Origin: a virus | Lineage: Duplodnaviria > Heunggongvirae > Uroviricota > Caudoviricetes | Strand: one strand, 5' to 3' | DNA length: 6,611 nucleotides | IMG/VR virus record: IMGVR_UViG_2619619131_000010 | Shown: positions 1,674-6,611 of the stretch, one piece after another | How positions within the stretch are numbered: the first letter of the stretch is position 1 | Layout of the letters: each line of letters opens with the position of its first letter | Made by a program: the position numbers and the translations under genes | Notes under the pieces: generated by a model | The model's input: the letters and a program-made list of their open reading frames with translations, nothing else | Told to the model about the DNA's origin: nothing | Databases searched by the model: none

Positions 1674-1842
1674 TATCGCGTCCTCAACAATGAATTTTGT
1701 GATGCGGTGCCTGGTGCCTCCAGGTGACGTTAACCAGTTAACAATTAACGCCGGATACAGAGAATCCACCCATAACACTGTTTTTGGTTTTAACTGTTCC
1801 GCGTGCGCTCAGCCGCATTCACCACATCACAAAATTCACTTT

Positions 1843-1885
1843 AAAAAGGGCGGCAGAGCAGTCACGGAGTAAAACTGATACCGCC
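1843..1885 (-). terminator. candidate intrinsic terminator for leftward transcription (imperfect hairpin followed by CUUUUU on the minus-strand RNA)
   Basis: Minus-strand RNA: GGCGG ... (CAGU/ACUG inner pairs) ... CCGCC then CTTTTTAAAG. The long loop makes this weak. Confidence 0.2.
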
Positions 1886-2234
1886 AAACGTCACCAGAAA
1901 ATTGATAACAGAGGGCGTTGCAGCGGGGTTGTCACTTAAGCGTATGGTCAACCTGACAACTCGGTGTCCTCAACGGGGAAGGAATAACCCCGCCATACTT
2001 ACCGCCGCGCCATTTCGCGGATTGCCACAACCGGAAACGCACGGTCGACGAAAATTTAACGACAGGCTATCTATGAACCAGCTACCTCGCCGGGCGCTTT
2101 CGCGTTATGGTCTGACTTTTCAGGGAAATATCCTTTCAGTAAACTGTCAGTGCCGGATGCTCACCCGTGTCCGGCGCACGCACTCCACCTCACCCGTGGA
2201 GAACTCCTTAATCACCAACCCTCAGGAGGGTGAA

Positions 2235-2510
2235 ATGTCGACTGAAAATGATGAAATCATTAACTCCCTGATACGCCAGATTAATAATTTTGATAAAGCA
2301 TTGCAACATGCTGCGGCGCGTAGTGATATAACTCTTTTAGCAATTTCATTTCTTGCATCTGTTATGGATAAAAATGAAGTCGTACGACAGAGTCTTGTTG
2401 ATTATATCGACTCGCTTCAACCCGGCACTTTCAATCATGAGAGCTTCAATCATGAGAAAGAGCATGTTAAGTCTGTAATTAATTCTCTTATTTTGAATCA
2501 AAAGAATTAA
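2235..2510 (+). CDS. hypothetical 91-aa protein, AT-rich moron gene; unrecognised
   Basis: ATG at 2235 preceded by AGGAGG with 5-nt spacer. Coding region is visibly AT-rich compared with its neighbours. Contains an in-frame 15-bp tandem duplication (FNHES/FNHEK). Stop at 2508-2510. Confidence 0.6.
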   Translation: MSTENDEIINSLIRQINNFDKALQHAAARSDITLLAISFLASVMDKNEVVRQSLVDYIDSLQPGTFNHESFNHEKEHVKSVINSLILNQKN

Positions 2511-2808
2511 TGCTTTTTGTTGCAAAGTAATTTTCAAGGGGTTCTATTCGAATCCCTTTCTTTTTCATTAACAAGCCAAACCCCTTATCAATGATGTCCA
2601 TTAGATCCAGGAAGTATTTTTCATGTAAATCCTGGTTATCAGAGAGCTGCTTCTCTTCGTACAGCCCGATAAAGGCTCGGCGTACGTTACCGGATATATT
2701 GTCGATGGTTTCTTTTTCTACGGTACTCAGGTCAAGAGTCGCCAGTTGAGAGCGAACCACATTCGATGCCATTTCCTGGAATGGTACTGGTAAATCTTTA
2801 AATTCCAT
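2488..2808 (-). CDS. hypothetical ~106-aa protein (110 aa if started at the ATG at 2820); unrecognised, AT-rich; second gene of the PL operon
   Basis: Track ORF 2488..2820. The ATG at 2808-2806 has GAGGT with 5-nt spacer. The alternative ATG at 2820 overlaps the upstream TGA (TGATG). The 3' end overlaps the convergent 91-aa gene by 23 bp. Confidence 0.6.
   Translation of the reverse strand: MEFKDLPVPFQEMASNVVRSQLATLDLSTVEKETIDNISGNVRRAFIGLYEEKQLSDNQDLHEKYFLDLMDIIDKGFGLLMKKKGIRIEPLENYFATKSINSFDSK
2536..2566 (+). terminator. candidate rho-independent terminator for the 91-aa gene, embedded in the convergent gene's coding sequence
   Basis: AAGGGGTTC-TATTC-GAATCCCTT hairpin (one G-U pair) followed by TCTTTTTC, 26 nt after the stop at 2510. 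No U-tract on the opposite strand. Confidence 0.3.
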
Positions 2809-2819
2809 CGTCAACCTCA

Positions 2820-2972
2820 TCAGTCAGTGTTTCTGGTTAACCAGCGACGCGCGCCAGCTTCAGTTTTAAACGTTTTGCTTCTGGTATATGTCATCGCGGT
2901 AAACGTGCCGTCCTGGTTGGGAAACACGCCGCATACCAGAGATTCGTTGTTGCCAAGCTCGATAGTATCCAT
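2820..2972 (-). CDS. small Rac-prophage-type protein, YdaF/DUF1391-like from memory (50 aa; 77 aa if the upstream ATG at 3053 is used)
   Basis: MDTIELGNNESLVCGVFPNQDGTFTAMTYTRSKTFKTEAGARRWLTRNTD. GAGGT 4-5 nt upstream of the ATG at 2972. First gene downstream of the PL-like promoter. The family assignment is recollection, not a search. Confidence 0.55.
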   Translation of the reverse strand: MDTIELGNNESLVCGVFPNQDGTFTAMTYTRSKTFKTEAGARRWLTRNTD

Positions 2973-3153
2973 GCTGACCTCATTTCCCCTTAACGCCGGG
3001 GTAGCGGAACAAAAACCTGCTGCATAGTTATTAAAGTTGAACCCTGCCGTCATGTTCTTACGCCTCGGGCTGGCTACTTAACCCCTGACCACTGCCTGGT
3101 AACTCGAGGTATTGCCCTGTATTGTGTGGGACGGGATGGGTTGGTATGGGAAA

Positions 3154-3182
3154 ACTATAGGAAATGCCTAATTACTTGTCAA
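3154..3182 (-). promoter_or_regulatory. PL-like early leftward promoter: -35 TTGACA, 17-bp spacer, -10 TATAGT on the minus strand
   Basis: Minus-strand TTGACA at 3182-3177 and TATAGT at 3159-3154. The -35 lies inside the operator copy. Confidence 0.6.
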
Positions 3183-3219
3183 TAGGCTATGCCTAATAAT
3201 TTGGGCGCAACCTAATAGG
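3166..3219. promoter_or_regulatory. OL-like operator cluster with TTAGGC/GCCTAA half-sites
   Basis: 3176-3198 is an exact 23-bp reverse-complement copy of 3819-3841 (ttgtcaataggctatgcctaata). Extra GCCTAAT (3166-3172) and CCTAATAGG (3211-3219) half-sites. Confidence 0.55.
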
Positions 3220-3290
3220 TGATGGTTTGTGGGAGAGGTAGTAGGAGTTAACTAACGGGAACTAGGAATTTCCCGTCGGACCATATAAGT

Positions 3291-3767
3291 TTAAGTTCCT
3301 GTCTTGGTGATGTTCTGGCTTTTCCGTTTTGATTCTTGATTTTTCAGATAGTTAGCTACCTTCATTTCCATTGCGGCAATGTAGGCGCGAACGTCATAAT
3401 CAACCCAACTAGGCTCCGTAGCATTTCCAGATAAGATGAAAGCCACAATTGCTTTTTTTTCATCAGAGGCGGCTTGATAAAGGCTGTTTATGTCTAAAAG
3501 TTCACTTTTTGTATCTGAAGTGGATGGGGTTGGTATGGGGTATTCGTTAAGCCCCCAATGCTCTGGACCAACCACATCAGAAAAGAAACGCCATAGTTCT
3601 GGAAGTTTGTCTTTACTTATCGAACCTTTCTTAATCCAGTCATGGATTGATGGTGGTTGGACTTTGAAATGACGTGCGATTTCCGCCTTTGATTTGACGG
3701 CTCCTGATGCAATTTTTTTGTTAATGGCCTGCTCTATCGCTCGGCCTAAGTCTTTACCACTAAGCAT
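3291..3767 (-). CDS. racR: Rac-type prophage repressor (RacR-like, 158 aa), the cI-equivalent immunity repressor
   Basis: Track ORF MLSGKDLGRAIEQAINKKIASGAVKSKAEIARHFKVQPPSIHDWIKKGS... with an N-terminal HTH. Divergent from the ydaS-like gene and flanked by operator-bearing promoters. Name from memory of E. coli K-12 RacR. Confidence 0.85.
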   Translation of the reverse strand: MLSGKDLGRAIEQAINKKIASGAVKSKAEIARHFKVQPPSIHDWIKKGSISKDKLPELWRFFSDVVGPEHWGLNEYPIPTPSTSDTKSELLDINSLYQAASDEKKAIVAFILSGNATEPSWVDYDVRAYIAAMEMKVANYLKNQESKRKSQNITKTGT

Positions 3768-3818
3768 TGCTTAATAGTCTCCTATGCGCATCGCGTTAGG
3801 CAATCCCTACTCTCGATG

Positions 3819-3864
3819 TATTAGGCATAGCCTATTGACAATTTCATTAGGCTAAGCCTAATAT
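3819..3864 (+). promoter_or_regulatory. PR-like early rightward promoter (-35 TTGACA 3835-3840, 18-bp spacer, -10 TAATAT 3859-3864) with overlapping OR-like operators
   Basis: Near-consensus hexamers about 28 nt upstream of the ydaS start. Operator inverted repeats TTAGGCatAGCCTA (3821-3834) and TTAGGCtaAGCCTAA (3847-3861) overlap the -35 and -10. Confidence 0.6.
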
Positions 3865-3891
3865 TGTTGCGTGTTTTTTGGAGTTCATTCG

Positions 3892-4215
3892 ATGAAAAAA
3901 GATAACTATTCATTCAAACGAGCTTGTGCTGTTGTCGGTGGGCAATCAGCAATGGCTAGGCTTTTAGGTGTATCTCCTCCAAGCGTAAATCAATGGATCA
4001 AAGGTGTACGTCAGTTACCTGCTGAGAGATGTCCTGCGATTGAACGAGCAACAAAAGGTGGTGTCCTGTGTGAAGAACTTCGTCCTGATGTTGATTGGAC
4101 ATACTTACGACGCTCGTCATGTTATTCGCAGAATATGTCGATGAAGCAACCAAATGACGAAAACGATCATACCCGAAGCATCAAGAGGCAAATGATTCAT
4201 GAAAATCAAACATGA
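3892..4215 (+). CDS. ydaS: YdaS-like Cro-type HTH regulator (107 aa)
   Basis: MKKDNYSFKRACAVVGGQSAMARLLGVSPPSVNQWIKGVRQLPAERCPAIERATKGG... matches my recollection of Rac YdaS. ATG at 3892 with GGAG 8 nt upstream; the track's GTG at 3871 is a probable over-extension. Confidence 0.85.
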   Translation: MKKDNYSFKRACAVVGGQSAMARLLGVSPPSVNQWIKGVRQLPAERCPAIERATKGGVLCEELRPDVDWTYLRRSSCYSQNMSMKQPNDENDHTRSIKRQMIHENQT

Positions 4216-4624
4216 GCACATCCGCATGGCGATGAATGCCTGGGCATACCCTGATGGTGAGAAAGTTCCTGCAGCTGAAATAGCCCGGACTTATTTCGAA
4301 CTGGGGATGACGTTCCCTGAACTGTACGACGACAGCCATCCGGAAGCCCTGGCCCGTAATACCCAGAAAATTTTCCGTTGGCTGGATAAAGACACCCCTG
4401 ATGCTGTTGAAAAAATGCAGGCTCTGTTACCGGCGATCGAAAAGGCGATGCCGCCTTTGCTGGTGGCCCGTATGCGCAGCCACAGTTCTGAATATTACCG
4501 TGAGATCGTCGAACGGAGGGATCGGCTGGTGAAGGATGTCGATGATTTTGTTGCGTCAGCGGTTGTTTTGTATGACCAGATGAATCGCGGCGGCCCGGCA
4601 GGGAATGCTGTGGTGATGCACTAA
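4199..4624 (+). CDS. ydaT: YdaT-like protein (141 aa); the family has been annotated as a toxin but is also described as a CII-like regulator
   Basis: MKIKHEHIRMAMNAWAYPDGEKVPAAEIARTYFELGMTFPELYDDSHPEALARNTQKIFRW... matches my recollection of Rac YdaT. Start overlaps the ydaS 3' end by 17 nt. Confidence 0.85.
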   Translation: MKIKHEHIRMAMNAWAYPDGEKVPAAEIARTYFELGMTFPELYDDSHPEALARNTQKIFRWLDKDTPDAVEKMQALLPAIEKAMPPLLVARMRSHSSEYYREIVERRDRLVKDVDDFVASAVVLYDQMNRGGPAGNAVVMH

Positions 4625-6072: not shown

Positions 6073-6176
6073 GCCAAATTAACAATCGGAACTTCGTGAA
6101 GAGAAAGCATAATCCAAATCTGGTGATGCTGCCAACTTACTGATTTAGTGTATGATGGTGTTTTTGAGGTGCTCCA

Positions 6177-6452
6177 GTGGCTTCTGTTTCTATCAGCTGT
6201 CCCTCCTGTTCAGCTACTGACGGGGTGGTGCGTAACGGCAAAAGCACCGCCGGACATCAGCGCTATCTCTGCTCTCACTGCCGTAAAACATGGCAACTGC
6301 AGTTCACTTACACCGCTTCTCAACCCGGTACGCACCAGAAAATCATTGATATGGCCATGAATGGCGTTGGATGCCGGGCAACTGCCCGCATTATCGGCGT
6401 TGGCCTCAACACGATTTTACGTCACTTAAAAAACTCAGGCCGCAGTCGGTAA
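6177..6452 (+). CDS. insA: IS1 InsA (transposition repressor, 91 aa)
   Basis: [51 protein letters not shown]... is the canonical InsA sequence; GTG start. Confidence 0.95.
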
Positions 6453-6611
6453 CCTCGCGCATACAGCCGGGCAGTGACGTCATCGTCTGCGCGGAAATGG
6501 ACGAACAGTGGGGCTATGTCGGGGCTAAATCGCGCCAGCGCTGGCTGTTTTACGCGTATGACAGGCTCCGGAAGACGGTTGTTGCGCACGTATTCGGTGA
6601 ACGCACTATGG
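6371..6611 (+). CDS. insB: IS1 InsB (transposase catalytic part, made as the InsAB' fusion by -1 frameshift), partial, 3' end outside the window
   Basis: Frame beginning atgccgggcaactgcccgc encodes MPGNSPHY...[33 protein letters not shown]..., recognisable as InsB. Confidence 0.9.

Follow-up and report, generated by a model that had tools for sequence, protein, structure and literature searches.

A91, a small gene antisense to a dicBF-type early-left operon of a lambdoid prophage, and the leader it shares with other exchangeable small genes

The window analysed here is the whole 6,611-nucleotide (nt) stretch of virus DNA (Caudoviricetes) filed in IMG/VR as IMGVR_UViG_2619619131_000010, and its subject is a pair of small genes, A91 on the plus strand and B106 on the minus strand, which meet head-on in the first part of a lambdoid prophage's leftward early operon. 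An earlier note, made from the letters alone, had described the pair as an AT-rich two-gene moron near the promoter PL and had proposed that it may be an exclusion, abortive-infection, anti-defence or toxin-antitoxin-like module. Its reading of the letters holds: the list of open reading frames (ORFs) contains a 91-amino-acid (aa) ORF at 2235-2510 (+) converging on an ORF of 110 or 106 aa at 2488-2820 or 2488-2808 (-), and their 3' ends overlap by 23 nt (2488-2510). The GC content of the pair, 0.38, is the lowest in the window, with only 0.1% of all 574-nt segments as low. Both the TGATG in which the stop codon of the adjoining DUF1391 gene overlaps an ATG at 2820 and the 11-nt gap to an ATG at 2808 are legible in the sequence, and a terminator-like hairpin (2536-2558, then TCTTTTTCAT; RNA fold z = -3.1) lies within the minus gene. 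Of the two-gene moron, the evidence supports an accessory insertion, variable and AT-rich, close to where the leftward early operon begins; it does not support a dedicated two-gene module. As judged from alignments, the plus gene follows a leader that is shared by exchangeable antisense small cargoes, at least six of them in other prophages; this leader is the new element, and both proteins fall into existing families of unknown function.

The sequence evidence marks A91 as a real gene whose protein is under purifying selection, because a near-consensus, optimally spaced ribosome-binding site (RBS; AGGAGG, 2224-2229) stands 5 nt before its ATG, because the ratio of nonsynonymous to synonymous substitution rates (dN/dS) is 0.28 in a comparison with a variant of 84% nucleotide identity, and because its relatives are kept at 90-93 aa. 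In the same comparison the other five frames give dN/dS values of 0.44-1.6 and contain stops. It is therefore very improbable that A91 is a chance, unexpressed ORF antisense to an untranslated region: such an ORF would fit with the missing standard promoter match and with the inconsistent start calls for this gene in RefSeq (91 vs 145 aa), but not with the constraint on this one frame, the optimally spaced AGGAGG and a length that is kept down to ~26% identity. Upstream extensions of the plus ORF to 145 aa and 202 aa are probably artefacts that run through DNA conserved for other reasons. The GC content of A91 is 0.35 vs 0.48 for the window (0.477 in full, with 0.485 at 2809-3290 and 0.54 in the left flank of the pair). 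The protein is predicted to be soluble and acidic (grand average of hydropathy, GRAVY, -0.31; longest hydrophobic run 13 residues), and AlphaFold2 (AF2) models reached predicted local distance difference test (pLDDT) values of 64 and then 73.6, the latter with three helices. Foldseek searches in PDB and BFVD gave no match of E < 0.9, the best template-modelling (TM) scores going to the generic three-helix bundle of ribosomal protein S20, and profiles of the A and B families retrieved nothing under E = 0.05 from the PDB sequences. No match to A91 was found by tblastn in 50,697 phage genomes, PADLOC-DB 2.0 gave a chance-level BrxA match alone (E = 0.014, 12.7 bits), and Pfam, NCBIfam, PADLOC and PHROG assigned A91, B106 and the other occupants of the slot to families of unknown function at most. 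Word-indexed searches with A91 retrieved relatives in Escherichia only, and a literature search on the RefSeq accessions found no mention of them. The earlier note had recognised neither protein; profile searches now place B106 in phrog_6937 and A91 as a divergent phrog_18692-like protein. No match in function was found for either, and none in fold for A91.

Two survey sets were used, 80 IMG/VR loci with this type of B gene and 5,426 complete E. coli genomes. The leader DNA is conserved in many prophages. An ATG follows the first of its two hairpins at a distance of 54-58 nt before five ORFs, namely A91, A92, ORF73, A77 and an 84-aa ORF (ORF84) of locus L237, and the A91 leader and RBS are identical in A92 of E. 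coli 042. A sixth cargo is a 57/61-aa ORF (ORF57) of L215, whose ATG stands at +48; it has the first hairpin in common with the others, but its second hairpin is another one and its leader is divergent. ORF73 (73 aa, phrog_7249; L028 4365-4586 and 13 other IMG/VR loci) is found in 14 of the 57 loci without A91, shares 11 nt with the 124-aa B gene (B124) and goes with a distinct B tail (HPATDGSVTVSHEISINH), and A77 (77 aa, phrog_10348; L008/L009 2886-3119, phages PPompW_EH2246 and Evi), which is not related to A91, overlaps a 135-aa B gene by 23 nt. Moreover, a 98/99-aa family (phrog_8894) stands at the equivalent position with another RBS. No hidden membership in the A family was detectable for ORF84, A77 or ORF57, and none of the slot cargoes matched PADLOC or Pfam. 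Empty forms of the slot break off within the second hairpin in L005 and L006 and immediately ahead of the RBS in Qin of K-12, and all of them are without the RBS. Because the same leader and RBS precede other, unrelated small ORFs and because empty slots are without the RBS, A91 appears to be autonomous and swappable.

The relatives of A91, all of 90-93 aa and ~26-36% identical, come from Escherichia, Salmonella and metagenomes. A92 of E. coli 042 (92 aa), which occupies the same position behind the same upstream DNA and RBS, is 28% identical to A91 and belongs to phrog_18692 (E = 5.9e-63). Compared directly, A91 matches phrog_18692 weakly (E = 0.022, residues 9-88 vs profile positions 6-89), and hhalign joins the A91 group and the A92 group with E = 4e-4 over 78 columns. 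Nineteen matches, consisting of 90-93-aa proteins and fragments, were retrieved with a joint A profile from 1.84 billion proteins; a match of the A profile to a 1482-aa HEAT-repeat protein (P0161) was dismissed as a repeat artefact. The invariant positions of the family alignment are R29, L34, S38, R51, E74, K75 and S84, and A91 shares with the other members the motifs R-[ST]-D..L..S and EK.H, the length and the 5' leader. A-family genes are always oriented against their neighbours, which can be B-family genes, a 214-aa helix-turn-helix (HTH) protein, a 71-aa first PL gene, cI repressors or an integrase. In all contexts examined the A gene is convergent with its 3' neighbour, and in most of them it is antisense within an early-left operon; its 3' end overlaps an opposite-strand ORF in 6/7 loci checked, the overlap ranging from 23 to 101 nt in most contexts (41 to 101 nt in the relatives). 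In L094 the A gene faces the 214-aa HTH protein in an element with cox-like, repressor and integrase genes, and in L095 and L101 A genes converge on cI-type repressors. L095 has a strong leftward promoter between cI and the A gene, which is therefore antisense to an early-left operon again. Unannotated ORFs of 49 aa and 57 aa lie opposite the A gene in L095 (812-960) and L101 (588-760), each with a GAGG RBS; they start at the T-run of the A terminator, overlap A by 74 or 101 nt and share KP..EASIL[ED]YL, and they may be genes or by-products of the terminator sequence. L099 has an A gene with a shortened version of the leader beside an integrase; a TacA-like antitoxin and an N6-methyltransferase/Eco57I-type gene belong to the same island, in which no DicF context was seen.

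B106, the converging gene, matches phrog_6937 with E = 6.9e-67 (residues 5-110 of the 110-aa form vs profile positions 1-106 of 124) and is thus a member of this family that ends 18 residues earlier than the 124-aa form. Of its two possible starts, both mentioned by the earlier note, 2808 (106 aa) is favoured and most likely the correct one, because a GAGG stands 6 nt upstream, the PHROG profile begins at residue 5 and RefSeq gives 106 aa; furthermore, B homologues with different upstream DNA begin MEFKDLP. The N-domain of B106 (aa 1-55) alone also matches phrog_1363, 2151 and 9419. Relatives of B106 occur in Rac/Qin-like prophages, in the phages PPompW and Evi and in Stx phages; they have the N-domain MEFKDLP...NVRxAFxGLY in common and differ in their C-termini (106, 109, 122, 124, 133, 135 and 147 aa), and recombination breakpoints lie inside the gene. 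B106 is small, soluble and acidic (GRAVY -0.39). Neither B106 nor the DUF1391 protein matched PADLOC-DB 2.0, and no homology was found between A91 or B106 and YdfB, YdfC, YdaG, KilR or SieB of K-12.

How the two genes occur together bears on whether they form a unit. Among the 80 IMG/VR loci A91 is present in 20/20 with a 106- or 109-aa B and absent in 57/57 with a 124-aa B, and the 124-aa form without A91 makes up the larger share, 57 of 78 loci. The pair is found in 198 of the 5,426 E. coli genomes (about 4%), the A91-unique DNA likewise in 198, and the B part alone in many more. A91-positive and empty forms have flanks that are >90% identical, and RacR is present in 3/20 A91 loci, the unit occurring with several immunity types. 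The check for co-occurrence that the earlier note had proposed thus gives a one-sided answer: A91 always stands beside B, while B is mostly without A91, and B106 therefore appears independent of A91. If A91 and B106 were a cognate two-protein module, either a toxin with its neutraliser or an abortive-infection or exclusion protein with a self-immunity factor that PL provides on induction, after the manner of SieB/Esc or BstA/aba, in which the C-terminus of B recognises A, the constant company of B106 or B109 would be explained, as would the 3' overlap that is kept in most contexts of the A family. The same holds for a domain, LLLEDAKRLQQ, that accompanies the A92 type. In E. coli 042 this domain is fused to the B N-domain, and in Salmonella (L096, L214) it forms a standalone protein of 71 aa or 67 aa, the 71-aa protein being the first PL gene there. 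It holds, too, for the 214-aa partner in L094, whose C-terminus (MKMKGAQFDPLDYG) resembles that of B106 (MKKKGIRIEPLENY). However, the same C-domains are widespread without any A-family gene (B124 in 57 loci; LLLEDAKRLQQ in 24/80 loci), unrelated cargoes stand behind the same leader beside the same B types, and the A gene of L099 has no partner ORF. The likeness of the C-termini may moreover be imposed by the DNA, because it maps to the terminator and to the conserved end of A, both read as reverse complements; in this reading the A-run of the terminator gives Lys codons, followed by the stem. Strict co-variation of the B C-domain with the plus gene was rejected, as the same C-domains occur with no cargo or with another one. 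Neither protein, both small, acidic and soluble, matches a defence or toxin-antitoxin model of PADLOC, Pfam or NCBIfam, which leaves the proposed defence or toxin-antitoxin-like module without a counterpart in these databases. The genes are convergent and no toxin or antitoxin domain was found in Pfam, NCBIfam or PADLOC, unlike in a type II toxin-antitoxin system, and although the 23-nt overlap is present as in type I systems, A91 and B106 are soluble and acidic. We consider a cognate module unlikely.

As to transcription, the predicted intrinsic terminator of A91 lies in a segment (2500-2575) that folds with -16.3 kcal/mol (z = -3.1). Its hairpin is intact in 19/20 A91-positive loci and weakened in about 40/57 A91-negative ones, loci that are not phylogenetically independent, and homologous or analogous hairpins follow the A genes of L094 and L095. 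At the position homologous to the candidate promoter, three diverged versions have TGn followed by a hexamer resembling a -10 box: TGtTATTAT in L094, TGgTAAACT in L216/L072 and TGaTAAGCT in L096. The consensus fold of the leader is -10.5 in the sense of A vs -5.9 on the other strand, and hairpin 2 carries two compensatory changes in L094. A structured, conserved 5' leader, the antisense placement in most contexts, the 3' overlap in 6/7 loci and the toxicity of dicBF operon expression (PMC5069750) could also mean that the RNA is the main product, an antisense regulator of the early-left operon that limits leaky B, DicF and DicB, much as OOP RNA does for cII in lambda or sas RNA for sieB in P22, with the ORF being secondary. 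This is quite improbable given the purifying selection at the protein level, the 90-93 aa maintained down to ~26% identity and the near-consensus RBS, and unrelated cargoes would yield unrelated antisense RNA. A role of the RNA in addition to that of the protein could exist, but it would not be the whole story.

The surroundings of the pair (Table 1) were identified by comparison with E. coli K-12, according to which the window is a Qin/Rac mosaic prophage; megablast matches it to E. coli prophages. Positions 438-2220 are 96% identical to the K-12 prophage Qin (ydfE, ydfD, dicB, dicF and a long untranslated region), 2841-3010 are 92% identical to K-12 ydfA, and 2985-4222 are 86% identical to the ydaG-racR-ydaS region of Rac. 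DicB, DUF1482 and DUF1391 were confirmed by Pfam in the window, and RefSeq annotates near-identical prophages with an exonuclease, DUF1482, dicB, two hypothetical proteins, DUF1391, racR, a YdaS-like HTH protein and the YdaT family. DicF lies 336 nt to the left of A91, with its long precursor region at 1900-2220. Since DicF sits downstream in the same operon, the leftward operon is, by sequence, the dicBF operon, an identity that the earlier note had missed, and here it is fused to a Rac-type immunity region (racR, ydaS-like, ydaT). Leftwards it runs from the PL-like promoter through the YdfA-like DUF1391 gene, B106, a long structured untranslated region, DicF and DicB to YdfD. The DUF1391 protein belongs to PF07151 (E = 9.3e-28, 96.1 bits, gathering cut-off 27.3) and, counted from M28, is 84-88% identical to YdaF and YdfA of K-12, and the gene is most likely 50 aa long rather than 77 aa, as in YdfA/YdaF and RefSeq. 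Qin of K-12 has the order ydfA-ydfB-ydfC-dicF-dicB-ydfD (PMC5069750). The window shares with it the YdfA homologue, the long untranslated region, DicF, DicB and YdfD, whereas segment 2221-2840 takes the place of ydfB and ydfC and the antisense A91 unit is added; K-12 Qin has both leader hairpins but neither the RBS nor a cargo.

Table 1. Features around the convergent genes A91 and B106, in window coordinates.
Feature	Position	Strand	Basis and remarks
A91, 91 aa, acidic (isoelectric point, pI, 5.4), all-helical; divergent member of a ~90-aa family including phrog_18692	2235..2510	+	ORF, RBS, dN/dS, homologues
Leader: hairpin GCCGGA..TCCGGC (2152-2179), hairpin CTCCAC..GTGGAG (2183-2201), CCCTCAGGAGGGTGAA, ATG	2152..2234	+	Alignments
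Predicted intrinsic terminator of A91	2536..2568	+	9-bp stem, 5-nt loop, T-run; inside the B106 coding sequence
Candidate sigma-70 promoter for A91 (TTTTCA-17-TAAACT, 8/12)	2117..2145	+	Relaxed scan; weak, candidate
B106, second gene of the leftward operon, phrog_6937	2488..2808	-	Last 7 codons overlap the end of A91
DUF1391 gene (YdfA/YdaF homologue), first of the leftward operon	2820..2972	-	Pfam PF07151
PL-like promoter of the leftward operon (TTGACA-17-TATAGT)	3154..3182	-	11/12 matches, near-consensus; just downstream of racR
DicF small RNA	1848..1899	-	Rfam RF00039, 76.7 bits, E = 3.7e-16

We favour, with a probability of roughly 0.55, a reading in which A91 is the cargo of an autonomous antisense moron unit in the dicBF operon and in which B106 is a separate, ordinary modular gene of the early-left operon rather than a dedicated partner of A91. 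The reality of the gene, the operon context, the mosaic structure, the shared leader and the presence/absence patterns on which this reading builds are established; we infer the promoter, when expression takes place, the interplay in antisense and the role that A91 plays. The unit would comprise the conserved two-hairpin leader with its strong RBS, a swappable ORF and an intrinsic terminator in the end of B106, and it would have been inserted backwards in the operon at the slot that is used by sieB in Rac of K-12. In the lysogen, in which PL is repressed, it would be transcribed from its own, putative weak promoter. Upon induction PL transcription would run head-on through the unit, and the 3' overlap would give complementary RNA ends, by which A91 and the early operon would counteract one another's expression. 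An acidic 10-kDa protein of three helices without an enzymatic domain would most likely act by binding another protein, as an accessory of the lysogenic phase. By analogy with SieB, A91 could exclude or interfere with other phages, or it could damp leaky toxic early products; such binding or interference is suggested only by the position in the sieB slot, the size and the charge of the protein.

Several observations weigh against the moron unit. The standard promoter scan found no promoter for A91, and the candidate from the relaxed scan has 8/12 matches and falls within the DicF precursor, DNA that prophages without an A gene conserve as well. The strand of the leader hairpins is ambiguous, L067 having a U-G pair on the plus strand and L096 one on the minus strand; the hairpin region, too, belongs to the DicF precursor. 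No canonical terminator follows A92 in E. coli 042 or Salmonella. A91 was never seen without B106/B109 (20/20 loci; 198 = 198 genomes), as a cognate pair would show. Finally, the analogy with exclusion is one of position, SieB being the one occupant of the slot with a known function. The pair may alternatively be an early anti-defence or host-takeover set like ral, gam and kil of lambda that serves lytic growth. Both proteins are small and acidic, as is common for phage inhibitors of host proteins, and B106 lies in the early-left operon by DicF and DicB. However, no likeness to a known anti-defence or takeover protein was found in Pfam, PHROGs with function, NCBIfam or PDB, and A91, which is on the strand opposite to the early operon, can therefore not be produced from PL. 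Such a set is hardly to be expected for the two genes together, and for B106 alone the idea is possible.

Going beyond the moron unit of A91 itself, the leader may be a dedicated expression platform of dicBF-type lambdoid prophages for the interchangeable cargoes A91, A92, ORF73, A77, ORF57 and ORF84, all antisense to the early-left operon. Each would be made in the lysogen only and silenced on induction by head-on PL transcription and 3' RNA pairing, and together they would form a reservoir of single-protein exclusion or interference factors that are harmless to their own phage by a built-in switch. We regard this extension as tentative and are inclined to doubt it.

Several known systems resemble parts of this arrangement. 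SieB of lambda and P22 is a superinfection exclusion protein; in P22, sieB is reportedly accompanied by Esc self-immunity and sas antisense RNA, work attributed to Ranade and Poteete in 1993. The question of the earlier note whether the slot holds a known defence gene is answered by sieB of Rac in K-12, which has the same slot and orientation: it lies on the opposite strand to kilR, ydaF and ydaG, with the kil/small-RNA (kilR/KilS) region on one side and the DUF1391 gene on the other, and at its end it overlaps ydaF by 4 nt. The two proteins differ, SieB being a membrane protein of 162 aa and A91 a soluble, acidic, helical one of 91 aa, and an exclusion phenotype of A91 is not known. BLASTP of A91 and B106 against K-12 SieB gave no significant match, and PHROG and Pfam gave no SieB match, so that A91 is not placed in the SieB family. 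The upstream DNA is unrelated. Morons are said to have been conceived by Juhala, Hendrix and colleagues as autonomous promoter-gene-terminator units of deviant composition. The plus gene is moron-like, as the earlier note had supposed of the pair, in its foreign composition (GC 0.35 vs 0.48), its presence or absence in near-identical prophages, its own RBS and its predicted terminator; it differs in that the unit is antisense in an early operon and overlaps a gene, that the leader is kept while the ORF is exchanged and that the promoter is a candidate. Convergent antisense pairs that overlap at their 3' ends by tens of nucleotides (23 here) are also known from lambda OOP RNA/cII and from the type I toxin-antitoxin system txpA/RatA. 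In contrast to these, both partners here encode soluble proteins, and there is neither a small hydrophobic toxin nor a sign of RNase III processing. Conserved flanks with exchangeable accessory genes by the immunity or early region are further shared with the variable cargo hotspots of P2/P4 (PMC9122126) and with BstA, whose gene lies downstream of the repressor and comes with a self-immunity element of its own (PMC8585504). The present cargoes differ from both in being single ORFs of 57 to 92 aa without recognised defence domains.

The slot would add to the map of lambdoid prophages a compact place for accessory genes inside the operon of the toxic DicF and DicB products. Should its cargoes act on other phages or hold the toxic early genes in check, they would count as new single-protein effectors, and if the head-on arrangement works as proposed, it would be a simple self-silencing switch. 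On the practical side, the start codons of three genes are corrected and spurious long ORFs over the DicF precursor are flagged. ORFs opposite to DicF or its precursor, in the window at 1784-1939 (+) and 1902-2510 (+), in L007 at 2236-2430 and in L009 at 3414-3605, are annotated as hypothetical in some records (64, 63 and 145 aa) and look like artefacts of conserved RNA-coding DNA. In the Salmonella Rac-like prophage L096 a different leftward hairpin with a T-run (GGCGGTACCAG...CTGGTATCCGCCCTTTTT, 3230-3290) stands at the position of DicF and may be another small RNA at the same place in the operon, like KilS in Rac of K-12. To the right of racR, the window carries a YdaS-like HTH gene and a YdaT-family gene (3889-4624) that overlap by 17 nt, a pair known from Rac of K-12 to be toxic and repressed by RacR (PMC5700373). 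Further to the right, an IS1 element at 6148-6611 (insA-like ORF at 6177-6452) breaks the prophage after a DUF977 gene; most near-identical prophages match up to 6122 only and then continue with other phage genes, and the genome E7476 has IS1A there.

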